From the IMG/VR virus record IMGVR_UViG_2974697560_000001: a stretch of DNA of 59,894 bases. The stretch is one strand, 5' to 3'. Below the pieces are notes generated by a model, which ran no database searches, was not told the origin of the DNA, and saw nothing but the letters and a program-made list of their open reading frames with translations. Made by a program: the position numbers and the translations under genes. The stretch comes from a virus. Lineage: Duplodnaviria; Heunggongvirae; Uroviricota; Caudoviricetes. Below, piece after piece: positions 1 through 13,664 of this stretch (the first letter of the stretch is position 1; the number at the start of each line of letters is the position of its first letter).

Positions 1-548
1 GTCCGGGATATCTCGCAGGCTTAACAAGCATTTGGAGGCACATTCTAAGCCCTAGCAAACATTCTGCCCACGAATCCAAGGCAAATAAGGCTGTCAAGCA
101 CCGAAATATATGCTCCAAAAGTGTCCCAAAATGAGCAAAAACATGCTAATTTCAAGGGGAATGCTGCCATTTTGCCCGAAATCGTGCCAGAATCCAGCAA
201 TTTTAACAGTCATTCGTAAAGCAGCCCCAATCTAGCCCACATGCAGCCCCAAATCAGCCCATCTTCCTGGAAAATTAGGCAGTCATCGTAAATGGACCCA
301 CCATTCGAAGGCCAATGAGCCTGATAGACCTTAGATTCATAGATGAGGTGTCGATTCTCCCTATATACATGCCAGACTTGAGTCTGATGTGAGAAAAGCC
401 CGGCAGTTTGAAGAGGCTTTCGTAAATGGACTAGATAGATACACACGCATTATAGGGAAGGGTAGATAGTATATGTATATAGGGGACAAGGACACCTATC
501 ACTACCGGCCTTGAATCTCAGCATGTCTTGTCTCTCATGTATATAGCA

Positions 549-578
549 GAAAAGCCACCCCGAAGGGTGGCTATTTTT
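549..578. terminator. Intrinsic terminator (probably bidirectional)
   Basis: AAAAGCCACCC-CGAA-GGGTGGCTATTTTT hairpin with A/T tracts on both sides. Confidence 0.7.
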
Positions 579-767
579 GTACTCAAAAAAGTTTCTGAAA
601 ATGTGCTGACTCCGGGGATTTTGAGCCCTGACTTAAAGGGCCAAATCCTGGGAAAAATAAGGAGCCTTCGTAAAGGGGATTCAATTCGGACATCGGGGAC
701 AAATCGATGTGAATCTTGACAGACATGAAGTTAGTTAGGCTAGCTAAGATGTCCGCCCCGGACATTG

Positions 768-858
768 AAAGGTCCCTGGGGAGAGGCCGACCTTCCTCTA
801 ATTAAGCCCTCGCCAGATTGACTGATAGGGCCCCCAGGGACACACTTTGTACTTCTCT
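768..858 (-). ncRNA. Candidate three-way-junction small RNA
   Basis: Promoter TTGACA(885-890)-17-TAACAT(862-867) with no ORF downstream; 10-bp stem 772-781/832-841 enclosing two 5-bp hairpins. Confidence 0.45.
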
Positions 859-902
859 TCTATGTTAGCAAGGCACTGATACCTTGTCAACATCACTTAT
901 TG

Positions 903-1079
903 TTACACCGGCTCGTTGGGAATGATGACCATCGTGTTGTCAGCGTTCCGATAGGTGGCACAGTGAGGGCACAGAGGAGTCTCAACGTCATCGAGATTGA
1001 AGGTGCCAACTGCCTTACGTGCGAAGCATCCTTCACAGGTCTCGTCGTCATTGGGACCAAACGCCATGACCATTGCCAT
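903..1079 (-). CDS. Small zinc-finger-like protein (58 aa)
   Basis: MAMVMAFGPNDDETCEGC...CPHC...EPV; two CxxC pairs, own promoter and GAAAGGGG RBS; below ORF-track cutoff. Confidence 0.7.
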   Translation of the reverse strand: MAMVMAFGPNDDETCEGCFARKAVGTFNLDDVETPLCPHCATYRNADNTMVIIPNEPV

Positions 1080-1209
1080 GTCTTCCCCTTTCGTTAATAC
1101 GAGTCTAGCAGACTACAAGGACACCTGTCTACCCACCGGGCCGATTGTCCGCCCCCGCCAAAACCCCCCTAAACCCTTTCGGGCTAGGGGGACTGGCGTG
1201 CTTACTGCA

Positions 1210-2223
1210 TTACGCAGCGAGCGACAGGACCGCCTTACGGATGCGGTTCTTCTCAGCGTTGACCACCGGGTCGAAACCGCTGGCAGAGATGAACAGGTTG
1301 TCCACGTTGCCACCACGCGGCATCCGGTACCAGTCGATACGCTCCGTCAGAGCGTTCAGCGCACCCGCCATCGTGCCAGCGAGAGACTGCGTGGTCTTGG
1401 GACCGTCGCCCGTGTCGGTGAAGATGCCCATCAGGATGTCACGCTTCGACTCCCACTTGACCATGGAACCCTTCACGTCCTTTTCGGGACGCGGGTACAG
1501 CTCCTGAATCAGGGTGTCGAACTTGTCCTTCGTGCACGCGACCTCGAACAGAGAGTTCATCTCACGCTCGAACTCATCCGCGTACGCGAACGTGATGTTC
1601 AGAGCCTCACGCGCGGCAGCCATGCGACCCTCGATGGTCTGCGTGTGGCGCATCTTGAACTGCTGCTTCACACCGTTACGGAGTGCGAAGTTCAGCGTGT
1701 TCTGACACACGACACGGACCGGGGTGATGCTTGCCTGTACTGCGACAGACCCGTCATGCGACGTGTTGACCAGAAGATACAGATTGGTCACGTCGTCGTC
1801 ACCGACCTTGATTTCCCGACCGATGGACAGGGAACCGAAGACCACGCGACCGTCACGGATGGAACCAGCAGTCTCCCACGTGCCACCACCCGCGAGGATG
1901 CCGTCACCGAAGCCGAACAGCTCCTCATTCTGGACGACCTTGTAGCGCTCGCCCACAGTGGCCAGAACGTCATTCCGGCCGGTGAAGGGGTTGGTACGGA
2001 CGACCATGTGAGGCTCGGTCACGAAGTCATAGGTGTCAGACACCAGACCCATGACATCCTTGACGGATTCCAGACGGACGTTCCAGTCCGACAGGTGAGC
2101 CAGGGACAGCATCTCCGAAGTGGTCAGCTCTCCCTCGAAGACGGTTCCGAGCTGGTGCCACGCGGGCTCGCTGCGAGTGGCGAACGCGACCTGACCCTTG
2201 GAACCAATCTCAAGACCGTGCAT
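1210..2223 (-). CDS. DUF932 / TIGR03299 phage-plasmid protein
   Basis: PAWHQLG, YKVVQNEELF, ETAGSIRDGRVVF, LVNTSHDGS, TPVRVVCQNTL, MRHT motifs. Confidence 0.85.
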   Translation of the reverse strand: MHGLEIGSKGQVAFATRSEPAWHQLGTVFEGELTTSEMLSLAHLSDWNVRLESVKDVMGLVSDTYDFVTEPHMVVRTNPFTGRNDVLATVGERYKVVQNEELFGFGDGILAGGGTWETAGSIRDGRVVFGSLSIGREIKVGDDDVTNLYLLVNTSHDGSVAVQASITPVRVVCQNTLNFALRNGVKQQFKMRHTQTIEGRMAAAREALNITFAYADEFEREMNSLFEVACTKDKFDTLIQELYPRPEKDVKGSMVKWESKRDILMGIFTDTGDGPKTTQSLAGTMAGALNALTERIDWYRMPRGGNVDNLFISASGFDPVVNAEKNRIRKAVLSLAA

Positions 2224-2416
2224 GTTGTGCCTCCAATGGCAGAGTTTGGTTAGGGCCGGTTTCCCTGCCCTTCGATGTCTCTAGTCTAGCAGTAGGCAAG
2301 GGGGGATGTCTACCCACCTTACCGGGCTCATGTCCACAATGTCCGATTTGCCCGTTGGCGGACCCGGACACACGAAAGCCCCTCCGAAGAGGGGCAGTGT
2401 GCGAGCCTTAGCAGAC

Positions 2417-2857
2417 TCAGTACGCGGCGTCCAGGCAGGAACGCTCCCAGTTGGCCAGGTACATGCCGTCCAGCTTGGACACGTAGGCGTCCACGATGTC
2501 CTTCGAGTCCTTGAGACCCAGACCGGTCTTCTCGCGGAGCTGCTTGATGCACTGAATCTTCTTGTTGGAACCGACCTCACGGACGATGTCCTTGACCAAC
2601 TCCGCACCCTGCGCCTTGACACGCGCCTCGATGTCACGGAGACGGTTCAGCTCGTGGCTGGTGGGCTGCTCGGCGTCCTGCTTGCCGGAACGATAGCCAG
2701 CCTGGTAGCCATCGGCGTAGGACTTGTCCTCACGGTTCTGGAGTTCCCCAGCGTAGATGGCCTCGAACATGTTCACCAGGTCCATGGCCCGGTTGAGGCT
2801 CATGTGACCCTCGAAGTTGTGAAGGGAGGTGAGGAGCTGAGCGCGAAGGTCCGACAT
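2417..2857 (-). CDS. Protein with C-terminal ribosomal L7/L12 CTD-like domain
   Basis: GSNKKIQCIKQLREKTGLGLKDSKDIVDA aligns with the bL12 CTD motif KVAVIKAVRxxTGLGLKEAKDLVE. Confidence 0.8.
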   Translation of the reverse strand: MSDLRAQLLTSLHNFEGHMSLNRAMDLVNMFEAIYAGELQNREDKSYADGYQAGYRSGKQDAEQPTSHELNRLRDIEARVKAQGAELVKDIVREVGSNKKIQCIKQLREKTGLGLKDSKDIVDAYVSKLDGMYLANWERSCLDAAY

Positions 2858-2979
2858 GATGTTCTCCGTTTCTAGGGGCTCCTTGCCCCTTTCGATGTCT
2901 CTATCTTAGCAGTACCAAGGGCCCTGTGTCTACCGGTCATTTTTGTCCGGGCCCGACAGGGCCCCGAAGGGCCCTTCTG

Positions 2980-3420
2980 TCAGAACCTCACACCGACACC
3001 GGAACCGTCACAGGTCTCCACGATGCTCTTTGCGGTACGCAGGTCCAACGACGGGAAGTGAGCGCGCAGATGCTTGATGCACGCAATCTTGCGCTCCAGG
3101 TTGTAGTAGCTGAACTCACCGTTCGCCCAGATGGACGCACGCGCGACCAACTTGGTGTGGTCGTTCTCAGCGGTGAAGTTGCTCAGACGCTCACCGTGCG
3201 CCTTACCCTGTCCGTAGCCGTCCTCGAAAGCGGACTCCACACGCTTGTCCGCCTCCTTACGGGCCAGGTCCCAGGCGTTGTTCTCCACCTCGTTGACCCG
3301 CTCCAGGTGCGCGCTGTAGATGTAACCAGCCACCGTGAACGCCTTCTTCAAGCTCATCTTGACACCGTTGGCGTTGAAGATACGCATGATGCGGGCTTCG
3401 TCCAGGGTGAAGATGCTCAT
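2980..3420 (-). CDS. Second L7/L12 CTD-like protein
   Basis: RKIACIKHLRAHFPSLDLRTAKSIVE; same length and layout as its neighbour. Confidence 0.65.
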   Translation of the reverse strand: MSIFTLDEARIMRIFNANGVKMSLKKAFTVAGYIYSAHLERVNEVENNAWDLARKEADKRVESAFEDGYGQGKAHGERLSNFTAENDHTKLVARASIWANGEFSYYNLERKIACIKHLRAHFPSLDLRTAKSIVETCDGSGVGVRF

Positions 3421-3552
3421 GGTAGCCTCCAGTCTCAGGGAGCTTGTCTCCCTTTCGATGTCTTTAGTCTACATGACTAGTGAGGCAGATACAAGCCCTC
3501 TTCAAAGTGTCCGGGCCCGACACGGGCCCCAAAAGTCAAGGGCCCGGTAGGG

Positions 3553-3843
3553 TCAAGGGTTGGTGTGTCCCCTTTTCAGTAGTATCTGTTCGATGATGAA
3601 TTTCGAATCCATTACGCGATTGAATTCATCATCTGAGCGGCTTTCTGTCCTGCCTGCCCATGCATTGAGAATGGAGATGATGAACTGAAACATCACCGCC
3701 TGCACAGGCTCAGGATAGGTCGAAAGCAGATAGGCGAATGCATGAGGGTCGAATGACCGCTTATCCATTTCGTCAATCAGCTTATTGGCCAGACGCTCAT
3801 ACGACGTAGGCCGTGGCGTTACGAGTCGCGCACCCTCATACAT
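3553..3843 (-). CDS. Hypothetical protein (~96 aa)
   Basis: 3' part of track ORF 3553-4233 starting MYEGARLVTP. Confidence 0.6.
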   Translation of the reverse strand: MYEGARLVTPRPTSYERLANKLIDEMDKRSFDPHAFAYLLSTYPEPVQAVMFQFIISILNAWAGRTESRSDDEFNRVMDSKFIIEQILLKRGHTNP

Positions 3844-3877
3844 GTCAGGTGCGATGATGCTTGTTCGTTTGAAGGGA

Positions 3878-4045
3878 CTACGCGCCACCCTCTCCCCCAA
3901 AGTCTTCCGTTGTGCCGTATCCGTCTGAGACGCTGACAGACAGGCCCAGCACCTTTGCCATGAACTCTGCCGTAGCAGTAGCAAAGGGCCAGGCCGTGTC
4001 GTGAGCGTCATCATCGGGCGTGTCGATTTCGATGATGACTGCCAT
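3878..4045 (-). CDS. Hypothetical acidic protein (55 aa)
   Basis: MAVIIEIDTPDDDAHD...; AGGATAGGG RBS; follows the Lsr2-like gene. Confidence 0.6.
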   Translation of the reverse strand: MAVIIEIDTPDDDAHDTAWPFATATAEFMAKVLGLSVSVSDGYGTTEDFGGEGGA

Positions 4046-4054
4046 GTCCCTATC

Positions 4055-4573
4055 CTATCGTGCGTGAACCTCGACGTCCATACCAAGCACCACCGGGGAG
4101 CCACAGCCGCAGTGCGACAGGCTGTAACCGCACTTGCACACCTCACGCTCCGAGAGACGGATGCGCTTGCCACGGTAGTAAGCCGTGTACTCGGTACGGT
4201 TCGAACGGGTGGGCTCGGCGTGCGGACGGACATCCTTGCCGGTCACCTTGACGTGCACACCGGGCGCAGCGGGCTTGACCTCCGGGTTGTCCGCCTTGTA
4301 AGCGGCCAGCACCTCAGCCGACAGACGACCACGAGACGACACGGTGAGACCCTTGGAAGCGGCCCACGCACGCACCACCTTGGCATCGAACTGTCCGGCC
4401 TTGGGGGCAGCCTTGACGACCTTGCGAGGCGTGGCGTCGGTGTCAGCGAAAACCTTGCCCGACTTCTCAGCCTCAGCGATGGCCTCATACGCGGCAGCGC
4501 TCATCCGGCCACGGGATTCCTTGGCCAGGCCCAGAGAGACAGCGTACGCGCGACGGGTCATGTTGACGTTCAT
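4055..4573 (-). CDS. lsr2: Lsr2-like DNA-binding protein
   Basis: VVRAWAASKGLTVSSRGRLSAEVLAAY matches the Lsr2 C-terminal AT-hook domain; second RGR motif near the N-terminus; Cys-rich tail. Confidence 0.8.
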   Translation of the reverse strand: MNVNMTRRAYAVSLGLAKESRGRMSAAAYEAIAEAEKSGKVFADTDATPRKVVKAAPKAGQFDAKVVRAWAASKGLTVSSRGRLSAEVLAAYKADNPEVKPAAPGVHVKVTGKDVRPHAEPTRSNRTEYTAYYRGKRIRLSEREVCKCGYSLSHCGCGSPVVLGMDVEVHAR

Positions 4574-4762
4574 GGGGTTTCCTTCCCTCGGTGTGCACTC
4601 AGTCTATCGGATTGAAGGCGGAGAGGCAAGCCCCGGTGCAGAGGTTGGTTTCCCTCCCCTTCATGTCTCTAGTATAGAGGACGTAACAGGGTCCTGTCTA
4701 CAACCCTAAATGTCCGATTTGCCCGAAGTCCGGGCCCGACATGCCCCCGAAGGGGCAAGGGG

Positions 4763-5497
4763 CTAAGCCTTTCGGCGCTTAGAGACCTTGGACGCGAAAC
4801 GGATATCTGCCTTACCGAAGATGCAAAGGCCACACGTTACACACGCACCGCCCTTTTCGGTAATGAGAGGAATGCGCTTGGCATTCTCAGGGCAGATAGC
4901 CCCAGGCTTACCAGTTTCGGTAAGCATGAATTCCTTGCCCTGTTCGTGAGTCTCAGAGAGATAGGCAAGGCGAACCGAAGGGAATTCCTTCTTTGTCACC
5001 AGCGCCTTTTCCTCATTCTCACTGTCCACACTCAGATAAACAGAGAGGTTTTCGTGTCCCACGATGTGACGCACGTACTGGAATGACCGAGTGTAAATCC
5101 AGAATTGCACATCCTGGAAAATCTCAGCCATTCGAGCGATGTTCTGTGCGTATTCCGCAGAGAAGATATCGCCGTCAGCGTGCCAGCGAAACAGCTTAGG
5201 CGCGTCACGCTTTTCACAGTCGGCCCTGAAACTCTCAATCATTACTGCGAGATTGAGAAATTGGTCCTCGTTAGGGTCATTGAGAATGGCCCAGTTGTTG
5301 AGAACCAATTCACGATATGCAGGGTACTGCCTTTCGAGCTTACCTGCATAGCATACGGTCTCACAGACCTTTGTCGCACCGGGGCAGGAAAACGCCTTTC
5401 CACTCGGAATGGAGAATGCGTTTTTGATGACCGACTGTTCCCCTCGCTTGTTGGCAAGGTTGGCAGTCTTACGGTCATTCGTGCGCTTAAGCGGCAT
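4763..5497 (-). CDS. Gp88-like (radical-SAM-related Cys-motif) protein
   Basis: SCPGATKVCETVCYA and FRWHADGDIFS motifs; start moved to MPLKRT after a GGAGG RBS. Confidence 0.7.
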   Translation of the reverse strand: MPLKRTNDRKTANLANKRGEQSVIKNAFSIPSGKAFSCPGATKVCETVCYAGKLERQYPAYRELVLNNWAILNDPNEDQFLNLAVMIESFRADCEKRDAPKLFRWHADGDIFSAEYAQNIARMAEIFQDVQFWIYTRSFQYVRHIVGHENLSVYLSVDSENEEKALVTKKEFPSVRLAYLSETHEQGKEFMLTETGKPGAICPENAKRIPLITEKGGACVTCGLCIFGKADIRFASKVSKRRKA

Positions 5498-5792
5498 TGC
5501 GTTCCTCCGAGCTGTAGGGCAATTCAGTGTTACGGACAATGGTACCGAGCGAAACAGCGTTGATTGTCTTGTGTCCAAGAATCCACGCCATTACGACACG
5601 GTGCTGACCATTGTAGACCGTGCCATTCTGAAAGTTGATAGGCATCTGAATTCCGTCACGCTCGCATGACTCAATGAATTCATCGCTCATCTCAAAGAAA
5701 AGCTGAGTGAAAAGGTCCATCGTGGACTGACCTTCCTCGCGGTCTGCGAAGTCGGCACGGGCAACGATGGCTTCAACGCTCAGCTTCCTCAT
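5487..5792 (-). CDS. ParB/Srx-like nuclease-domain protein
   Basis: GIQMPI...VYNGQHRVVMAWILG; promoter -10 lies 7 nt before the ATG. Confidence 0.65.
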   Translation of the reverse strand: MRKLSVEAIVARADFADREEGQSTMDLFTQLFFEMSDEFIESCERDGIQMPINFQNGTVYNGQHRVVMAWILGHKTINAVSLGTIVRNTELPYSSEERNAA

Positions 5793-5901
5793 GTGTTCGA
5801 GTATAGCAAGACATGCGGACGTAAACAAGCCCCTAGACGAATGTCCGAAATGTCCGTTGTCCGCCCCGGACATGACTGAGGGCCCCCGAAGGGGCCCGGT
5901 G

Positions 5902-5964
5902 TCAGAGAAAGATGATTGCGAGAAAGAACACAATCACCACGTACCAGAGAAGGCGGTCAGACAT
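5902..5964 (-). CDS. Putative 20-aa membrane peptide
   Basis: MSDRLLWYVVIVFFLAIIFL; start overlaps the stop of the upstream peptide. Confidence 0.4.
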   Translation of the reverse strand: MSDRLLWYVVIVFFLAIIFL

Positions 5965-6034
5965 TCTCGCAAACCTCCCGGTACCAAGAGTAGTGCGTGT
6001 ACAGGTAGAAGTGAAGCCACTCAACGAAGTGCAT
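5957..6034 (-). CDS. Putative 25-aa aromatic-rich peptide
   Basis: MHFVEWLHFYLYTHYSWYREVCENV; AGGAG RBS. Confidence 0.45.
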   Translation of the reverse strand: MHFVEWLHFYLYTHYSWYREVCENV

Positions 6035-6036
6035 GT

Positions 6037-6360
6037 TTACTCCTGACAGAGAGGCAGGCCCAAGTCGTCCTGCATGTCCAGAAAGTCCGAGTTGAAGATT
6101 TCAAGGTACGTGCCACCCTTGATTTCTTCGATACCGAGCATGTATGCCACGATGAGCCTGTGACACCCCTCGTGAATCATGTTCTGCTCCTCATCATAGC
6201 AGATGGGAGAGACGATTCCAAGAGTCTGACATGAGTCCATGAACTCATCCGACAGCTCAGACAGCTTGCGCAAGAGAAGTTGTTCACGAGTGAGACCAAG
6301 AGCCTCAGCGTCGTAGAACAGAGCGTTGTCGATGAGTGCCTTCACACTGTACATCTTCAT
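6037..6360 (-). CDS. ParB/Srx-like nuclease-domain protein (paralog)
   Basis: GIVSPI...IHEGCHRLIVAYMLG; shares LSDEFxxSC with 5487-5792. Confidence 0.65.
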   Translation of the reverse strand: MKMYSVKALIDNALFYDAEALGLTREQLLLRKLSELSDEFMDSCQTLGIVSPICYDEEQNMIHEGCHRLIVAYMLGIEEIKGGTYLEIFNSDFLDMQDDLGLPLCQE

Positions 6361-6487
6361 TGCTTTCCCCCTTTCGCTAGTACGAGTCTACTGCACTACC
6401 GGGCCCGATGTCAACACATCTGAAAAATGTCCGGGGCCGCCAAAAGGGGCCCCGGAGGGCCCCCAAGGGGTCAAGCCGTTGTTGTGA

Positions 6488-6760
6488 TTAGTCCTCGCTG
6501 GTGTCCTTCTGGCTCACCAGCTTCGCGCGACCAAGCAGAGAGGCGTCAGCCTCCTTCCACTTACGAACCGGGCGACCGGTGCGCACGCGGGGGAAGCGGG
6601 CCAGGATGGCACGGGCGCGGGTCTCGTCGGCCTCCAGGATGTCGAACCGCTGGAAGGGAGCGACGTTGGACGTGGCACCGAACTCGATGTCCACCCCCTG
6701 GACAATCATGGCCACACGGAGGGCGAGAGCGTCACGGGCGGGAACGATACCGGCAATCAT
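6488..6760 (-). CDS. Hypothetical protein
   Basis: GGAG RBS, GC3-rich codons, cassette position. Confidence 0.65.
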   Translation of the reverse strand: MIAGIVPARDALALRVAMIVQGVDIEFGATSNVAPFQRFDILEADETRARAILARFPRVRTGRPVRKWKEADASLLGRAKLVSQKDTSED

Positions 6761-6889
6761 GTGAACTCCACTGCTAGAAGTAAGCTGGGGTATGAAGTTG
6801 TCAGAGACTTTGGCAGGAAGGGAAAAACCTCACGTTGCGAGGCCCTGTGGCCTGTCCCCTTGTGCTTAGCTAGAGTCTAGCAGGCCGAC

Positions 6890-7072
6890 CTACTCGCAGT
6901 CAACCAGGTACTCGGGCTCGTCGTCCTCGGAGACGGTCCAGATGTCCGCCAGCCATCCGCTACGGATGACACCAGCCGACACGAACTTGTGCGGCTCAGC
7001 AGCCTCACGGACAGCGTCCTCATACTCCTCTTCGGAGATGATGCTGTAGCCATCGGGAATCTCGAACGTCAT
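6890..7072 (-). CDS. Hypothetical acidic protein
   Basis: AGGAG RBS and own promoter. Confidence 0.7.
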   Translation of the reverse strand: MTFEIPDGYSIISEEEYEDAVREAAEPHKFVSAGVIRSGWLADIWTVSEDDEPEYLVDCE

Positions 7073-7205
7073 GATTGCTCCTCTCTTGGGGAGGTTTCCC
7101 TCCCTTTCGATGTTCTAAGTCTACATGAGAGATGGGACAGGCGCAACACCCAATATTCGTTAGACTGCCTAAGTTGTCCGGGTCCGACCCCGAAGGGCCA
7201 GACTG

Positions 7206-7364
7206 TTAGTCTCCCATGTCATCCAAGTGAGCATCGGGAACGGGCTCGAACTCAAGGAAGGTGTCTTCGAAAAGCACCATCCATGCGTAGCCCTCACGGT
7301 TGTCAGGATTGCACTTACCACGGTGCATGTCACCCGTGGCAGCACCACACTCAATGCAGGTCAC
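7206..7364 (-). CDS. Hypothetical Cys/His protein (52 aa)
   Basis: GTG start overlapping the upstream stop, AAGGAGG RBS; MTCIECGAATGDMHRGKC. Confidence 0.6.
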   Translation of the reverse strand: MTCIECGAATGDMHRGKCNPDNREGYAWMVLFEDTFLEFEPVPDAHLDDMGD

Positions 7365-7579
7365 TCGGCCTCCTTGATGTCCATGGCAACCAGCATGTCA
7401 ACCCTGCTGACAGTGAGGGCAATCTCTCGCCCGTCCTTGTCAGTGAAGTTGAAGGTACTTGCCTTGGCAGCGACCGCCTTGCGCCACGACTCGTTCGTCT
7501 CCTCCGCGTTGTGCGAAGTCAGAGTGAACAGAACCGGCTTGTCACGGTGGGCCAGGTGAACAGCAACGCGAGTAGCCAT
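7361..7579 (-). CDS. Hypothetical protein
   Basis: GAGG RBS and own promoter. Confidence 0.7.
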   Translation of the reverse strand: MATRVAVHLAHRDKPVLFTLTSHNAEETNESWRKAVAAKASTFNFTDKDGREIALTVSRVDMLVAMDIKEAE

Positions 7580-7700
7580 GATGCATCCTCTCTTCCGGGA
7601 GTTTTTCTCCCTTTCGATGCTCTAACTCTACACCATCAGACAGACAGAATCAAGACTGTCCGGGCCCGACACGGGCCCCGAAGGGCCCGGCGGGAAGGTG

Positions 7701-7985
7701 TTACTTCTTGGCCTTGGCGCGCTTGTTGCTGTGGTTGCCGTTCATGAGGGCCGTGAAGTCCAGCATGATGTTCTGCTTGAAGTTGGTCGCTCCGTGGAAC
7801 TTGCCGTCCTGGTCACGGATGACGATGCGGACCTCGGTGGAGTCGCTGCCCGGAGTGGTCTTCCAGGTCTCCAGACGGATGCTGTAGGTGGACTTGGAGC
7901 CCTTGACCTTGAAGCCCTCGGAGATGGTGACGCTGGAGACGATGTTGTGGTTGACGTCGGTCGCCTTGCGAAGGGTAACAGCCAC
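7701..7985 (-). CDS. Hypothetical basic protein
   Basis: AGGAG RBS and own promoter. Confidence 0.7.
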   Translation of the reverse strand: MAVTLRKATDVNHNIVSSVTISEGFKVKGSKSTYSIRLETWKTTPGSDSTEVRIVIRDQDGKFHGATNFKQNIMLDFTALMNGNHSNKRAKAKK

Positions 7986-8127
7986 GGTGACTCCTAAGTC
8001 TCTGCTAGGGGTTTCTTTCCCCCTTGCTGATAGCTAAAGTCTACACGACTCAGCCGACAAGTACAACCCATGAAATTATGTCCGAAATGTCTGTCGGAGC
8101 CCGACAGGGGCCCGGAGGCCCCTCCCG

Positions 8128-8454
8128 TCAGACCTCGAACCCGACGACCGAGCCGTCGTCGTTCTTGAAGTACACAGCCTCACTCTCAGCCTGAAGAGTG
8201 CGCATGTGCGACAGGTCTTCGAGCGTGCGGGAAATGCTTCCCAGCGTGTCCCACGCCTCACGACGGGTCCAACCGAGGAAACCATCAGTCGTGCCGGGTG
8301 CGTTGCTTCCGTCCGGCATACGCAGGGTGTATGCCACACCCATGTTACGGCTGCCTTCCTGGAGCTTGACCGTGAGCGAAACGCCCTGGTTCTCCCAAGC
8401 ACGGATGTAGCGGTTGACCATGCCGACGAGCTGAGTCTTCGAGATGCGGTCCAT
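8128..8454 (-). CDS. Hypothetical protein
   Basis: GGAAGGA RBS and own promoter. Confidence 0.7.
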   Translation of the reverse strand: MDRISKTQLVGMVNRYIRAWENQGVSLTVKLQEGSRNMGVAYTLRMPDGSNAPGTTDGFLGWTRREAWDTLGSISRTLEDLSHMRTLQAESEAVYFKNDDGSVVGFEV

Positions 8455-8507
8455 GGTGTTTCCTTCCCTCGGTGTAACTGAAGTCTAGCAGGTTTAGCAG
8501 GTGGTGT

Positions 8508-8645
8508 CTACTTCTCCTGCTGCTTTTCCAATTGCTCCTTGTAGCTGGTCAGGATGCGACGGAGCCAGGCAGGAACGATGCCCTGTTCCTTGGCAGCCGC
8601 AATCTCAGCCTCAGTGAATGGACCAGTAGGGATTTCGAAAGTCAT
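8508..8645 (-). CDS. Hypothetical protein (45 aa)
   Basis: MTFEIPTGPFTEAEIAAAKEQG...; RBS and own promoter. Confidence 0.6.
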   Translation of the reverse strand: MTFEIPTGPFTEAEIAAAKEQGIVPAWLRRILTSYKEQLEKQQEK

Positions 8646-8756
8646 GGCTTCCCCTCTCGGATTTCTTAGTCATAGTCTACACGACCAGATTTTTAGTCGC
8701 AAGCCCTATTTTCAAGATTTTTAGTCGGGGGCGGACGCCCCGAAGGGCTAGCCACC

Positions 8757-9068
8757 TTACTCCCAAGGCTGGTAGTCAGACCAGTCGGAACCCTCGTGAT
8801 TCTGGATTTCGATGGTCACCGTGTCACCCAAACGGTGATTCACGCTGTACAGGGAGCGGCTGGAGCCCTGGTAACGCCTTTGGGCCTTTGCCCACTTGAC
8901 CAGCTTCTCAGCCTGCTTGCGGGAGCGGCAGGGCCATGCCTCGATGCACTCTCCGTAGTTGTACCACCATCCGCCCTCTTCCGAGCCACCACAGGCCCGG
9001 TCTACGAAGTGAATGTTCACCCAGTGCTTGTTCCGACGACGCTGACCCATACGAAGACCCTTGGCCAT
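8757..9068 (-). CDS. Hypothetical protein
   Basis: AAGGAGG RBS; DRACGGSEEGGWWY motif. Confidence 0.7.
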   Translation of the reverse strand: MAKGLRMGQRRRNKHWVNIHFVDRACGGSEEGGWWYNYGECIEAWPCRSRKQAEKLVKWAKAQRRYQGSSRSLYSVNHRLGDTVTIEIQNHEGSDWSDYQPWE

Positions 9069-9175
9069 TTCCGCCTCCTTGTTGATGACCTAAGTCTAAC
9101 AGAAGCCTAGGACAGATTCAATATGCTTGCCAGGATGTACAGTGATTGTCGGACCCGGACAAAAAATTCGCCTAC

Positions 9176-9236
9176 AAATTCACCCCTCTTTTCTAAGGGA
9201 ATCTGGGAAGAAATCCTTGAAAAGAGGGGTGAATTT
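9176..9236. repeat. Perfect 18-bp inverted repeat
   Basis: AAATTCACCCCTCTTTTC (9176-9193) / GAAAAGAGGGGTGAATTT (9219-9236). Confidence 0.9.
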
Positions 9237-9487
9237 TTTCTGCGAATGTTTTTCGAAGGTCAGATTGCGACTTTTTCGTCTTTTCCTGCCTCACAAAGGC
9301 AGTATTTCGAATGTGTCGCCTCGATTGCGACAAAGCCGCTTTCCTGATACCTCGAAAGAAGGTTGGCCAGAAGGGACGAGTTGAAAACCGGGGTTTTGGA
9401 TTTCAGCCCGTCCCTTTCCAGCAAAAGGGACATACTGTGAAATCGGACTTTTGAAACAGCCTTTTTCCGCATTATGCCCCCTTTAGG

Positions 9488-9634
9488 TCAGCCCAGTTCG
9501 GACATGTGCGCGTAGGCGTCCTCGGTACCGAAGTCAACGGTACGGTCAGCGTCCCGCACGGTGGAGACAGGCAGGGTCATGGTGGTGAAGACGCCAGCGT
9601 CCACAGCCTGCTCAAGAAGGTCACGAAGGTCCAT
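9488..9634 (-). CDS. Hypothetical protein (48 aa)
   Basis: MDLRDLLEQAVDAGVF...; GGAAGGAAG RBS and own promoter. Confidence 0.6.
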   Translation of the reverse strand: MDLRDLLEQAVDAGVFTTMTLPVSTVRDADRTVDFGTEDAYAHMSELG

Positions 9635-9784
9635 GGTGTGTACTTCCTTCCGTCTTGGTGATAGCTCTAGTCTAGCCTACGTACATGGGGGATGCAAGCC
9701 CTAGATGTTCCGGGAATTTTCAGCGCCTATCGTACACGCGCGGGGGAAATGTGGGGTATGTCCGTAAGGCCCCTTAATAGAGCC

Positions 9785-9882
9785 TATGCCCTATATGTAC
9801 CATGTGCCCATATATGTACTGCTATGGCATGGTATGTACCCATATGCCCTATGTGTACCAGTATGGGTAGGTATGTACCCAA
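9785..9882. repeat. Degenerate TATG(T/C)(A/C)CC tandem repeats
   Basis: TATGCCCTATATGTACC, ATATGCCCTATGTGTACC, GGTATGTACCC twice. Confidence 0.6.
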
Positions 9883-10016
9883 TGTCCGTTTTGACCTAAA
9901 TGTCTGTCGGCCCCGGACGTTACCAAGTCTTTACCTAAGAAGTTCTCGGATTGGCGGTTTAGGCGGGGGCGGACGGGTAGTATGTAGGCATAGCCACTAC
10001 ACACCAGGGAGACACG

Positions 10017-10478
10017 ATGAACGCCACCGCCACCCACACCAACACCCACACTGACGGCCGGACCTGCACCTACGCTACGGAAAAGGCCACTAACGCCCGT
10101 GTGCGTAGGCAGGTGCTCGCTACGGTGCTGTACCTGGCATCCCTCACGGGGGACAGTGACGGGGCCACGTGGGCTAACTGTGTGGGGTGTGGGGAGCGTG
10201 CCCACGTGGGCGGTACCCCTAGGGCTATGGACACGTTCAACCTTGGCCACGTGCACAGTGATGCGGAAGGGGGCATGTGGTGCGTGTGCAACTTCCTCCC
10301 CCTGTGCAGGCAGTGCAACGTGGACATGGGCAAAGAGCACATGATGGACGTTCTCACTCCGATGTATGACAATCGGGACATGTGGGACGGTAAGCTCATG
10401 CGTGACCCTGGCAATGCCGAGAGTGCCCCGATGGTGAACCGTGGCCGTGCCCGTTGGGCGGCCCCCACGGGCCGCTAA
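10017..10478 (+). CDS. HNH endonuclease-like protein
   Basis: CVGCGE...LGHVHS...GG...NFLPLCRQCN. Confidence 0.7.
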   Translation: MNATATHTNTHTDGRTCTYATEKATNARVRRQVLATVLYLASLTGDSDGATWANCVGCGERAHVGGTPRAMDTFNLGHVHSDAEGGMWCVCNFLPLCRQCNVDMGKEHMMDVLTPMYDNRDMWDGKLMRDPGNAESAPMVNRGRARWAAPTGR

Positions 10479-10489
10479 GCGGCTTAGAG

Positions 10490-10525
10490 AGTAGCCCCTA
10501 GGACGTAGTGGCCTAGGGGCTCTTT
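10490..10525 (+). terminator. Intrinsic terminator
   Basis: AGCCCCTAGG-9nt-CCTAGGGGCT-CTTTC. Confidence 0.7.
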
Positions 10526-10716
10526 CATGCCCTCAGACGGGCCCTCAGCCCTTTTGAAAACGGCTTTCAACTAGGGTGGAACCTTCCCCGGAACCTTCCC
10601 GCGAGAGAATGTCAAGGGATATGGGCGCACTATCTGGATTGTTACAAAGGTATGCGAAGCATGTATCGTACAACATCAAAAATTACTAACATTTCGCACA
10701 CCTTTTAATGTAACAA

Positions 10717-10959
10717 TTAGGTAACGTCGGGGTCGGACTCTTCCTCATTACTGGCGACTTCATCGCCCATCACGAATGATGGGGGAGGAGAGAACGTCTT
10801 TCCAGCAGAATGGGCGTCGAATACGGCTTTCGCTTCATCAGGATTTACAGCACGAGCAATGCACATCATTACGTCGTAGATACGCAACAACATGATTGTC
10901 TGTACTATCTCTGATGCATCCTCTGCGAATACATCTTGAGGTTCGTTGTCACTGTTCAT
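10717..10959 (-). CDS. Hypothetical protein (80 aa)
   Basis: Start MNSDNEPQ overlaps the thyX stop. Confidence 0.65.
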   Translation of the reverse strand: MNSDNEPQDVFAEDASEIVQTIMLLRIYDVMMCIARAVNPDEAKAVFDAHSAGKTFSPPPSFVMGDEVASNEEESDPDVT

Positions 10960-11665
10960 CTTGTCTATCATTCCCAAATGGTCTGAGAGCGACAGGGAAT
11001 TCGGGAACAATGAGGTCACGAACGGCCTGCGCATACTGCTGAATTTCTAGCTGTGCCTTGTGCTCTAGCCTTTCATTGAGAAAGTGCATTACTGCTGCAA
11101 GGCTGGTAGTCCAACGCCATCTTACATACATACCATATGCGGGGAGGAATAGTCTTGCTTGTTCCGGCGCGAGTCCACTGTCCAATGCCTGATTGTATAG
11201 TGTCTCACCTTGTGCCAGGAATTCCTTGAGCATATCGGTGTATTGCTGAGAAGTGATAGGGTCTGCGTTTTCTCCGCTGCCCTGCTTCTTGTTTTCTGGT
11301 GCCATACGCCACTCTGTTGGAATGTGGTATACGGGGTCTTCTGTTATATAGCGTCTTGATGATTCGTTCCAGCCTATTTGGTCATCAAGATGGGTAGAAG
11401 CCACTGTATATTTCCACCATTGACGTGCAACGAATAGAGGTGCATAAACCTCAAACGTCATCGTGGCATGTCTGAATGGGGAATACTCGTTATTCCTGAC
11501 AAGGAAGTTGATAAGACGCTCATCCCTGTCTCCAAACTCTGCACTTTCCTTGGCATAAGATACTCTAGCTGCATTTACAATGGAAAGGTCACTTCCCATA
11601 TGGTCTACTAGACGTACATATCCTTCGTCAAGGACCCTGATAATATTCTGTTCCCCACCGGGCAT
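10949..11665 (-). CDS. thyX: Flavin-dependent thymidylate synthase
   Basis: GYVRLVDHMGSDLSIVNAARVSY, HxSPF-like YSPFRH, APLFVARQW, WNESSRRY, HKAQLEI. Confidence 0.93.
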   Translation of the reverse strand: MPGGEQNIIRVLDEGYVRLVDHMGSDLSIVNAARVSYAKESAEFGDRDERLINFLVRNNEYSPFRHATMTFEVYAPLFVARQWWKYTVASTHLDDQIGWNESSRRYITEDPVYHIPTEWRMAPENKKQGSGENADPITSQQYTDMLKEFLAQGETLYNQALDSGLAPEQARLFLPAYGMYVRWRWTTSLAAVMHFLNERLEHKAQLEIQQYAQAVRDLIVPEFPVALRPFGNDRQDEQ

Positions 11666-12802: not shown

Positions 12803-13146
12803 GTCCTCAGTTTGTCACATGTCCTGGGACATTGTCAAGACGTGACACTGCCTTGTTCACCGTATTCACTGGGACATCTGTCCCCTTGATGTCACAAATC
12901 TGCTTGTGCAATTCTTTCCTGTCCGTGACACCCTTGTCCCATAGCTCTCTGACCAGGGCGGACACTGACTTGTCCTTGTTTGTCACCGATGTCTCTGTCA
13001 CCTTTTTTGTCCCTGGGACATTGTCCGTGACAGGAATGTCCGGTGACGTGACAGAAAATGTCTTGTCCTCTGTCTTTGTCACCTTGTCCTTTTTGTCACT
13101 TGTCTTGTCCTTTGTCTTCTTTCTGTCCAGAGGCTGTCCAGTGACA
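12741..13146. repeat. Dense TGTC/GACA tetramer array
   Basis: 40 TGTC or GACA occurrences counted by hand in ~410 bp (about 3 expected at random). Confidence 0.85.
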
Positions 13147-13664
13147 TTTGTGACGGCTTCATTCAGACGGAAGAATACCACATCCTTGAAGCCACGGAAA
13201 GTCTTGCCTGGGAAGATAAGCCAGCTAATCTTACCAAACACTGGCATACGCTTCGGAACAAGACCCATTGAGCGCATCTCGCTTCGGTGAATGAAGCGTA
13301 GATAAAGCTCGAAAAGGATACCGGCAATAACTGGTGGTGCTCCAAAAAGAACCATTCCAGGGATGCCATAGGATAGCAAGATGGCGTGCTCTACGTTGAG
13401 GTAGACAGACGCACCGACGAACAGATATGTTGCTAGTTTTGTTGCAAGGCCAGAATCTTCTGTTCTGGCATACTTTGAGGCAAGGTCAGCTACAAACAGA
13501 GCTGCGCCATCAAAAGCCGCGCTTACACCGATAGCAAGAATCTGGGGCACGCCATAGAACGTAATTGCGAGCGAATAAAGACTCCACCAAGATAGTGCGA
13601 GGCTTACAACAAGCACAATCGCAAAGCCGAGCCAACCAACCTTGAATTTCTTAAGATATTTCAT
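12807..13664 (-). CDS. DUF2637/Spd-like membrane protein with C-terminal HTH-like region
   Basis: Four hydrophobic segments (LALSWWSLYSLA, AAFDGAAL, ASVYLNVEHA), a T/D/K/V-rich linker and a helical C-terminus; start MKYLKK after GAGGAGAGGG. Confidence 0.7.
   Translation of the reverse strand: MKYLKKFKVGWLGFAIVLVVSLALSWWSLYSLAITFYGVPQILAIGVSAAFDGAALFVADLASKYARTEDSGLATKLATYLFVGASVYLNVEHAILLSYGIPGMVLFGAPPVIAGILFELYLRFIHRSEMRSMGLVPKRMPVFGKISWLIFPGKTFRGFKDVVFFRLNEAVTNVTGQPLDRKKTKDKTSDKKDKVTKTEDKTFSVTSPDIPVTDNVPGTKKVTETSVTNKDKSVSALVRELWDKGVTDRKELHKQICDIKGTDVPVNTVNKAVSRLDNVPGHVTN

Follow-up and report, generated by a model that had tools for sequence, protein, structure and literature searches.

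A Streptomyces phage of cluster BE1 (Samistivirus), whose left end is analyzed here as a window of 59,894 nucleotides, carries an array of regulatory cassettes within its ~11-kb direct terminal repeat (DTR), in which about 21 small genes are arranged in repeated units: a hairpin, a 15-base palindrome (hereafter, the box), a host-type promoter, and a structured leader. The box is most likely the docking site of a phage protein, because its version follows the phylogeny of the HNH endonuclease gene of the DTR but not the phylogenies of three further DTR genes. The fuller proposal, in which a dimeric phage protein docks on the box and the HNH endonuclease is the best candidate, is based on sequence comparison and is held here with slightly less than even confidence.

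The array was found at two places per record, which is the terminal-repeat location, and no published description of it was found in the literature. Each leader is followed by a normal ribosome-binding site and then by one to three small genes, and the gene content of the DTR is mosaic among related phages. The array probably comprises early or host-takeover genes; we infer the early timing from two things, the host-type promoters and the analogy with phages SPO1 and T5.

750-9919, minus strand: cassette array in the DTR, with ~21 small genes, 17 promoters, 12 hairpins, and 13-14 boxes
10017-10478, plus strand: HNH endonuclease gene, inside the DTR beside the top box; candidate reader of the box

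An earlier note on this DNA had described the modular anatomy of hairpin, palindrome, promoter, and leader, and all of these parts were located on the minus strand. The 17 promoters that it claimed, with mostly TAGACT as the -10 element, correspond to 17 promoter-like sites (TTGNNN or TAGACA, 17-18 nt, TANNNT), 12 of them with TAGACT. In a stricter scan, the 17 consensus matches compare with 3.7 expected; as predicted from sequence, the promoters belong by consensus match to the HrdB type, recognized by the principal sigma factor of the host. All are on the minus strand:

9669-9697: P1, TTGCAT-17-TAGACT
9093-9121: P2, TTGAAT-17-TAGACT
8674-8702: P3, TTGCGA-17-TAGACT, with the GACTAAAAATCT repeat in the spacer
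8482-8510: P4, TAGACA-17-TAGACT, without hairpin or box
8038-8066: P5, TTGTAC-17-TAGACT
7625-7653: P6, TTGATT-17-TAGAGT
7118-7146: P7, TTGCGC-17-TAGACT
6874-6903: P8, TTGACT-18-TAGACT, without hairpin or box; leader of 113 nt
6385-6414: P9, TTGACA-18-TAGACT, with TCGGGCCCGG in the spacer
5800-5828: P10, TTGTTT-17-TATACT, ATG 7 nt past the -10
4671-4700: P11, TAGACA-18-TATACT
4601-4629: P12, TTGCCT-17-TAGACT, preceding the Lsr2-like gene; without box
3466-3494: P13, TTGTAT-17-TAGACT
2903-2932: P14, TAGACA-18-TAAGAT
2283-2312: P15, TAGACA-18-TAGACT
1102-1131: P16, TAGACA-18-TAGACT
862-890: P17, TTGACA-17-TAACAT, promoter of a small structured RNA

The P10 transcript is probably leaderless, given the distance of its ATG from the -10 element.

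Twelve GC-rich hairpins (-12 to -27 kcal/mol) were found at gene ends, 7 of them with a TTCG loop, in agreement with the frequent UUCG loops noticed before.

7673-7688, minus strand: hairpin GGGCCC-UUCG-GGGCCC, 1 nt before the box
9233-9179, 8748-8737, 8122-8107, 7199-7186, minus strand: gene-end hairpins
6464-6446, 5897-5880, 4757-4742, 3546-3523, minus strand: gene-end hairpins
2975-2958, 2395-2378, 1191-1164, minus strand: gene-end hairpins

Since only a few of the 12 are followed by a T-tract, a standard terminator scan misses most of them and recovers a single gene-end hairpin, that of the 2395-2378 unit. Where an intrinsic terminator (hairpin plus U-tract) would have its U-tract, the GC-rich box is found instead. 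The hairpins may act as attenuators or 3' stabilizers and not as full terminators.

In the box, a 15-bp palindrome, arms of 6 bp enclose a 3-bp center. The window has 8 exact copies of TGTC-N7-GACA, of which 7 fall within 750-9161 (1.34 expected). With at most one mismatch, TGTCSG-N3-CSGACA has 13 copies, all within 750-9919 (0.46 expected by chance; matched by 0 of 100 shuffles), and zero copies in the other 49 kb of the window. Together with one two-mismatch copy, this agrees with the 13 or more palindromes claimed previously. Equal frequency of the motif in coding DNA would have spoken against the earlier note, and every copy proved to be intergenic.

9905-9919: box, one mismatch, array top; lacking a preceding hairpin and any promoter within 200 nt
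9147-9161: box, exact
8723-8737: degenerate box with two mismatches (one in NootNoot)
8092-8106: box, exact
7657-7671: box, exact; other box versions at the orthologous slot in Anedea and Coruscant
7175-7189: box, one mismatch
6428-6442: box, one mismatch
5858-5872: box, exact; followed by two CGGACAT words at 5856-5842
4727-4741: box, one mismatch
3508-3522: box, exact
2944-2958: box, exact
2356-2370: box, one mismatch; followed by CGGGCA/CGGACA/TGGACA words at 9-bp spacing
1146-1160: box, one mismatch
750-764: box, exact, array bottom; after the small structured RNA, with no promoter following

The words that follow the boxes at 5858-5872 and 2356-2370 confirm the additional CGGACA half-sites of the earlier note. 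Its core copy at 6391-6408 is real: the spacer of P9 (6414-6385) contains TCGGGCCCGG. This copy is probably no working box, because the outer TG..CA is absent and Sushi23 differs at that place.

Related phages carry five lineage-specific versions of the box in one and the same slot, none of them outside the DTR. In four A-type genomes, each DTR copy has 12-15 boxes of type A, against 0 in the ~110-kb unique parts, and other versions are likewise DTR-only in Coruscant, Anedea, and Karimac. Comparison of orthologous positions shows a conserved hairpin and promoter around a 15-mer that is exchanged as a unit. Types B and C have the core GCCGCCCCGG in common.

The box version appears to track the HNH gene, which is present in both DTR copies and annotated as HNH in all 86 of 86 BE records. 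On the HNH tree, the five box types need no more than the minimal 4 changes, and B and C are grouped at 100/99 support. The three control DTR genes place type B within type A and reject a clade of B with C (p = 6e-7, 4e-5, and 0.028), the box-type groups for the tree tests having been named after the 7-taxon matrix had been seen; on the HNH tree, rejection of a forced A+B grouping is no more than borderline (p = 0.049). Among 297 Anedea ORFs, 9 are nearer to Karimac than to any A-type genome, and HNH is among the approximately three real genes there. The HNH-box link depends on essentially one allele-swap event (type B), and the HNH of the window is only ~70% identical to other type-A HNHs. 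By reading, the CxxC...H...N...CxxC-N motif is intact in 17 of 17 orthologues; the 10017-10478 product matches Pfam HNH_5 with an E-value of 0.0027, under the curated cut-off, and no PDB relative of it was found by sequence.

Co-variation with a nuclease gene suggests that the reader of the box is of a different kind than a transcription factor. A dimeric phage-encoded protein, with the HNH at the top of the repeat as the best candidate, would dock on the box DNA and bind, nick, or cut at every cassette boundary; the bound or nicking protein could then seed recombination that homogenizes and shuffles the cassettes, or else insulate or regulate them. With 26 sites in the phage genome itself, a nuclease would need some explanation: it might only nick, be tightly timed, or bind without cutting. 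Among phages, free-standing HNH homing and nicking endonucleases such as I-HmuI and N.phiGamma are likewise small phage-encoded proteins, and here too the site and enzyme versions co-vary. Unlike the sporadic homing enzymes, the BE HNH is universal, with its position fixed in 86 genomes, and its putative sites are ~13 palindromes per repeat in its own genome. HNH enzymes are not known to read 15-bp palindromes at promoters. We regard it as rather unlikely that the HNH and the ~13 boxes per repeat form a built-in cassette-exchange engine with programmed nicks or breaks at early-gene boundaries. If they did, the nicks or breaks would drive recombination both from cassette to cassette and between co-infecting relatives, the regulatory parts would stay uniform with cargo genes turning over, enzyme specificity and box would switch together, and the array would be a lytic-phage counterpart of the integron or of the programmed nicks of T5.

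The earlier note had proposed one regulator switching the whole early block. That the box is the operator of a dedicated dimeric, co-evolving phage transcription regulator, turning this block on and off, is conceivable but doubtful. Arms of 6 bp around a 3-bp center are typical of helix-turn-helix dimers, the box is restricted to intergenic DNA near promoters of the DTR, its lineage-specific versions occur in phages with one common host, S. griseus, and extra CGGACAT half-sites extend toward several promoters. However, the box adjoins the hairpin and lies at a variable distance of 3-43 nt upstream of the -35 element, never overlapping the core promoter; the three promoters without a hairpin (8510-8482, 6903-6874, and 4629-4601) also lack the box, and the boxes at the two array ends include a bottom one without a promoter. 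A site overlapping or phased with the core promoter and an identified binder, as in repressor/operator systems, were not found: no DNA-binding domain was detected among 20 DTR proteins, the sole annotated helix-turn-helix protein does not co-vary with the box, and a genome-wide identity screen gave no DNA-binding candidate. In the Streptomyces phage phiC31, Wilson and colleagues (1995) reportedly found conserved inverted repeats, bound by the repressor, beside early promoters, and the many copies of one inverted repeat at early terminator-promoter units are similar here. Unlike the temperate phiC31 with its known repressor as the binder, the BE phages are lytic, no repressor was found in them, and the repeat sequence is different.

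Binding of the box by a Streptomyces transcription factor or nucleoid protein exploited by the phage is very unlikely. GC-rich palindromes are typical for sites in high-GC hosts, and no phage regulator was identified; however, phages with types A and C share their isolation strains (S. griseus ATCC 10137 and S. lividans), five versions would demand five host factors, and the box version follows a phage gene.

About as improbable is a role of the box as RNA, either as a second small hairpin (6-bp stem, 3-nt loop) extending the U-less terminators or as an alternative pairing partner for the 3' arm of the gene-end hairpin, even though the box sits right against the hairpin at the place of the U-tract, most hairpins have no T-tract, and the hairpin 3' arm provides the left arm of the box in Coruscant and Anedea. 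Full self-complementarity, and with it the full stem, is limited to 17 of 49 type-A sites; usually one arm is kept, each arm being conserved independently of its partner, and the mismatches are G-G, C-C, or G-A and never compensatory G-U. The symmetry of the box may therefore act at the level of DNA, and true RNA-type covariation was, by contrast, seen in the leader. The least probable reading, a functionless spacer homogenized per genome by cassette-shuffling recombination, would agree with the demonstrated inter-cassette recombination and the near-identical hairpin-plus-box copies, but not with two-fold symmetry retained in five independent versions, conservation of the box amid unconserved flanks, and strict retention at both array ends.

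The leader motif CGAAAGGG has 10 copies in the window, 7 of these in the DTR on the minus strand. The first bases of the leader, AUCGAAA-GGG..., lead into a 5' RNA stem-loop, and CATCGAAAGGG likely represents the start site with the 5' arm of this structure. In the leader alignment, pairing holds in 96% of the cells, both sides vary in 4 of the 6 pairs, and G-U pairs are present; 0 of 500 shuffles pair as highly, slid controls are much lower, and all 20 matches of the model (20/20) fall within DTRs. By this covariation, the stem-loop is shown to be real.

7589-7618, minus strand: leader with start site, AUCGAAA, and stem-loop GGGAG/CUCCC
7081-7111, minus strand: leader stem-loop GGGAGG/CCUCCC
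3430-3459, minus strand: leader stem-loop AGGGAG/CUCCCU; the Cursive deletion has its crossover here
2867-2896, minus strand: leader stem-loop AGGGGC/GCCCCU; the Lululemon deletion has its crossover here

Six cassettes with long leaders have a GGAG-type ribosome-binding site of their own, 6-8 nt upstream of the start codon, which bears out the suggestion that the leader is distinct from the real site. The GAAAGGG of the leader has 6 contiguous matches to the anti-SD sequence and may stabilize the mRNA or boost translation. Known 5' mRNA stabilizers include the STAB-SD of cryIIIA and the SP82 polypurine stabilizer (mentioned among the works cited in PMC3997798), as well as the polypurine stabilizer of mycobacterial katG (PMC2358910). 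As in these, an SD-like polypurine run is located near the 5' end, apart from the real ribosome-binding site; unlike in them, it is half buried in a conserved stem-loop, and its stabilizing role is putative.

The SPO1 host-takeover module (1998), as outlined in passages of PMC6873191, is a terminal repeat with many small genes having their own promoters; no repeated palindrome is reported for SPO1 in these passages. The BE array resembles this module and the T5 pre-early genes in its ~10-13 kb end repeat and its roughly two dozen small genes, whose host-type promoters and ribosome-binding sites are both strong. No genes homologous to the SPO1/T5 module were found, and unlike in SPO1 and T5, early timing and host shut-off are putative here.

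Unit-to-unit recombination between close relatives was read from the junctions in Cursive, Lululemon, and Sushi23. The junctions of two natural deletions (Cursive and Lululemon) are inside the shared promoter/leader, and one coding-block replacement has its boundaries precisely at the ribosome-binding site and the stop codon. As these genome comparisons show, recombination between repeated promoter/leader parts has deleted and replaced genes in natural relatives. The observed crossovers are 40-90 bp away from the box, none inside it. The role of the cassettes as homologous joints for gene shuffling, postulated in the earlier note together with a check of gene gain/loss breakpoints, is thus supported by the two deletions, the replacement, and the mosaic DTR content. 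The note had also drawn an analogy to the PeSL (promoter-early stem-loop) cassettes of T4-type phages, which combine a strong host-type promoter, a GC stem-loop, and an SD/start codon, flank small orphan genes in a plastic region, and recombine with one another, deleting, inserting, or replacing genes by crossovers between the -10 element and the start codon (Arbiol et al. 2010, PMC2839356; Comeau et al. 2014, PMC4122927). The BE cassettes differ in having no sequence relationship to PeSL, an actinobacterial host, a hairpin upstream of the promoter and not in or over it, an added 15-bp palindrome with lineage-specific versions, an added structured leader, and a terminal-repeat location. Because of the different sequence and order of parts, they are an analogue and not a member of PeSL. 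The analogy itself holds: promoter/hairpin units lie beside small genes, the Cursive and Lululemon crossovers fall between the -10 element and the start codon, and the deletions and the replacement in relatives break in shared regulatory parts.

The intergenic array at 750-9919 on the minus strand is genuine and lies far outside chance expectation. The exact pattern TGTC-N7-GACA occurs eight times in the window (1.34 expected), with seven of the eight copies located within 750-9161, whereas the fuller form TGTCSG-N3-CSGACA was found 13 times at up to one mismatch versus 0.46 expected. All 13 of these boxes lie in 750-9919, and a 14th, degenerate copy is present at 8737-8723. The 13 or more palindromes claimed in the earlier note were thus recovered, and a check of the motif in coding DNA, which that note had proposed, placed 13 of 13 copies in intergenic regions. 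The claimed number of promoters also holds: the cassette table contains 17 (TTGNNN or TAGACA, 17-18 nt, TANNNT), including 12 with TAGACT as the -10 element, and an independent promoter scan returned 11 strict matches against 3.7 expected. Transcription units end in GC hairpins (n=12), seven of which carry a TTCG loop. No description of an array of this kind was found in the searchable literature.

The region 750-9919 is 98% identical to the Streptomyces phages Sushi23 and Peebs (cluster BE1, Samistivirus, Stanwilliamsviridae), and the window starts at the left end of the genome. Since the region is present twice per record in 86 related records, it belongs to the ~11-kb direct terminal repeat (DTR) of these phages. 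A DTR of ~11 kb with 20-25 genes, including an lsr2-like gene, was reported for these phages, and regulatory motifs of the repeat were not reported in that work (PMC5764925). The array genes are all on the minus strand and mostly orphans; family matches were obtained for a DUF932 protein, a GP88-family protein, an Lsr2-like protein, two ParB-N-like proteins and an L7/L12-CTD-like protein. In the BE cluster, which comprises large lytic phages of Streptomyces, nearly all genes of the terminal repeat lack a known function, and the map of 17 predicted transcription units offers a direct way to clone and test likely host-takeover genes. A paralogous pair of 146-aa proteins is encoded at 2417-2857 and 2980-3420 (minus strand), each in its own cassette; one of them has a Pfam hit to the C-terminal domain of ribosomal L7/L12 (E 3e-8), and Lululemon and Cursive carry deletions of one or both paralogues.

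The version of the box found in the window (type A) is represented by 12-15 copies per DTR copy in Peebs, Mildred21, NootNoot and MulchMansion and by zero copies in the ~110-kb unique parts of these genomes. The same slot is occupied in relatives by four other versions:

GGGCCG-CCC-CGGCCC, same slot, in Anedea, Riptide and Bmoc (type B)
TRGCCG-CCC-CGGYNA, same slot, in the Karimac group (type C)
YGACCG-GCC-CGGTCR, same slot, in Tomas
TGGCGCC-C-GGCGCCA, same slot, in Coruscant

The versions of Anedea, Karimac and Coruscant, the three tested, are likewise restricted to the DTR. In one aligned orthologous intergenic region, the 15-mer changes en bloc, with the hairpin, promoter and leader kept. 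Full self-complementarity is observed in 17 of the 49 distinct type A sites, one arm is usually retained among these 49, and the mismatches are never G-U, which indicates that the symmetry is read at the DNA level rather than as a hairpin in RNA. Types A and C were found in phages from the same host strains, which counts against a host factor as the reader.

The gap between hairpin and box is 0-7 nt in 11 of 12 units, and the box lies 3-43 nt upstream of the -35 element. The hairpin-less promoters at 8510-8482, 6903-6874 and 4629-4601 are also boxless, and the terminal boxes at 9919-9905 and 764-750 bracket the array with no promoter nearby; thus, the box goes with unit boundaries and not with promoters. 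Most gene-end hairpins lack a T-tract, which is why a terminator scan misses most of them, and the GC-rich box occupies the position of the U-tract after the hairpin, so that full intrinsic termination is doubtful. Roadblock-assisted termination has the wrong geometry, because a box-bound protein would be expected to stop the polymerase with the hairpin not yet transcribed. An N4-type hairpin promoter, considered because the stem is 6 bp and the loop 3 nt, was set aside since host-type promoters are present and a virion RNA polymerase is not annotated.

The evidence favours the box as a boundary site at which a phage protein docks, an HNH endonuclease being the best candidate, over the possible alternative that a single regulator reads the box and switches the whole block, as the earlier note had implied. 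The HNH gene (10017-10478, plus strand) is located beside the top box and is present in both DTR copies in all 86 records. On the HNH tree of 17 phages, the five box types require four changes, the minimum, and type B joins type C with support 100/99, the HNH-box link resting on one swap event and the groups of the HNH test having been named after a small identity matrix was seen. Types B and C have the core GCCGCCCCGG in common. Three control DTR genes place type B inside type A and reject the B+C clade (p 6e-7, 4e-5 and 0.028); the converse test, run on the HNH tree, gives a borderline result (p 0.049). Compared with all A-type genomes, Karimac is the nearer match for only nine of 297 Anedea ORFs, and HNH is among the approximately three real genes in this set. 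A DTR-confined box with five lineage versions that track HNH is a lead, amenable to testing, to a system of protein-DNA specificity without a described role; if true, the HNH-box system would provide orthogonal protein/site pairs, as well as strong and compact expression parts for Streptomyces.

Other candidate readers fared worse. In the 20 DTR proteins, no DNA-binding domain was identified by Pfam or PHROGs, and the top candidates of a genome-wide identity screen for genes whose divergence parallels that of the box belong to no DNA-binding family. The product of gene g13 diverges in step with the A-to-B switch (88/88/88 vs 53%); it was dropped because Karimac has no homologue and an atlas hint pointed, at low score, to a PII-like family. 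The identity pattern of the ParB-N-like proteins g10 and g12 is out of step with box type, and no co-variation with the box was seen for the MerR-like 54-aa helix-turn-helix protein, the sole annotated one. The 3' half of the gene for a DUF2637 membrane protein (12807-13664, minus strand) is dense in GGACA (17) and GTGACA (11) words, and the orthologues in Karimac and Coruscant contain mainly GTGACA. The box changes in Karimac and Coruscant but these words remain GTGACA or GGACA, and the DUF2637 protein is therefore not the box reader; it may be related to the separate CGGACAT words.

The leader of the cassettes is an RNA structure. A conserved CATCGAAAGGG begins 5 nt past the -10 element, a spacing that makes the A of its CA the likely transcription start. 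In six cassettes CATCGAAAGGG leads into a stem-loop whose arms vary among cassettes with complementarity kept (GGGAG/CUCCC, GGGGC/GCCCC and GGGAGG/CCUCCC, with G-U pairs in relatives). A covariance model built from nine leaders gave 20 matches in seven sources, all 20 on the minus strand within DTRs, and zero matches over 49 kb of unique window DNA. In the leader alignment, which was fitted to this model and is hence biased towards pairing, 96% of cells are paired and both sides are changed in four of six pairs; none of 500 shuffles reached the observed value, and slid controls fell to 38-71%. Downstream of the stem-loop, a separate ribosome-binding site of the GGAG type lies 6-8 nt ahead of the start codon, and in the short-leader cassettes 6390 and 1107 GAAAGGGG itself is the ribosome-binding site. 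By analogy with 5' mRNA stabilisers, one of them mycobacterial, which resemble these leaders in the 5' SD-like run and stem-loop, we infer that the leader may act as such a stabiliser.

Several units depart from this layout. At 5805-5800 (minus strand; region 5790-5805), the -10 element TATACT is followed by an ATG 7 nt later, and the mRNA of the ParB-N-like gene is thus probably leaderless. The leader variant CATGAAGGGG at 4676-4671 (minus strand; region 4599-4676) gives a possible leaderless 21-codon mini-ORF overlapping the next promoter, and an ATG is retained at that position in Coruscant. An unusually long leader of 113 nt (6761-6873, minus strand) precedes a 90-aa gene (6760-6488) in a unit without hairpin or box; its sequence is kept in Anedea and Coruscant, and it may represent separate RNA-level control. 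The 17th promoter, TTGACA-17-TAACAT, drives a predicted ~90-nt structured RNA without an ORF (767-890, minus strand), closed by a long stem, GUCCCUGGGG...CCCCAGGGAC, with its end just preceding the bottom box; this RNA is kept in Karimac and Anedea and has no Rfam match. An Rfam search of 1-11000 returned nothing relevant.

The suggestion that the cassettes serve as joints for gene shuffling is supported by sequence comparison with relatives, in which the breakpoints of gene gain and loss were located. Cursive lacks window 2289-3449 (two genes), and its junction follows the 3494-3466 promoter and continues, after a switch inside GACATCGAAAGGG, into the leader of the 2312-2283 unit. In Lululemon, ~2303-2879 is missing, with a crossover in the same shared leader. 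In Sushi23 an unrelated 919-bp block replaces window 8132-8651, with identity returning precisely at the upstream ribosome-binding site and at the downstream stop codon. The box was rejected as the crossover site, since the three junctions fall instead at the promoter/leader, ribosome-binding site or stop codon. DTR gene content is mosaic among seven relatives. Promoter-early stem-loop (PeSL) cassettes of T4-type phages are defined by such recombination, including crossovers between the -10 element and the start codon (PMC2839356), and the Cursive, Lululemon and Sushi23 junctions behave in the same way. These natural deletion and replacement junctions show that PeSL-style shuffling via shared regulatory parts operates in actinophages too, which helps to explain orphan-gene turnover. 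The ParB-N-like gene 6037-6360 (minus strand), 94% identical to that of Anedea between neighbours at 44-80% and absent from NootNoot, is an evident example of recent cassette exchange.

Other repeats were observed in the DTR. Two direct repeats of GACTAAAAATCT (8726-8715 and 8698-8687, minus strand) are located at one promoter, the second within the -35/-10 spacer; they are kept at the equivalent promoter in NootNoot, Anedea, Karimac and Coruscant and look like a separate operator of that unit. In Karimac, a similar AAAAGATCTTG is present downstream of the box in most cassettes. A dense run of GGTACAT, GGGCAT and CGGACAT words at ~9-bp spacing (9780-9900, minus strand) separates the top box from the first promoter and is kept in Karimac, Anedea and Coruscant; it is similar to iterons and could be an origin or end-related site. 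A composite repeat of TTTACGA, 10-15 nt and a AAAATTCCCGGA-like element occurs in several copies in the gene-free left end (1-700) and once at the array top (9700-9745), and is also present in Karimac and Coruscant.
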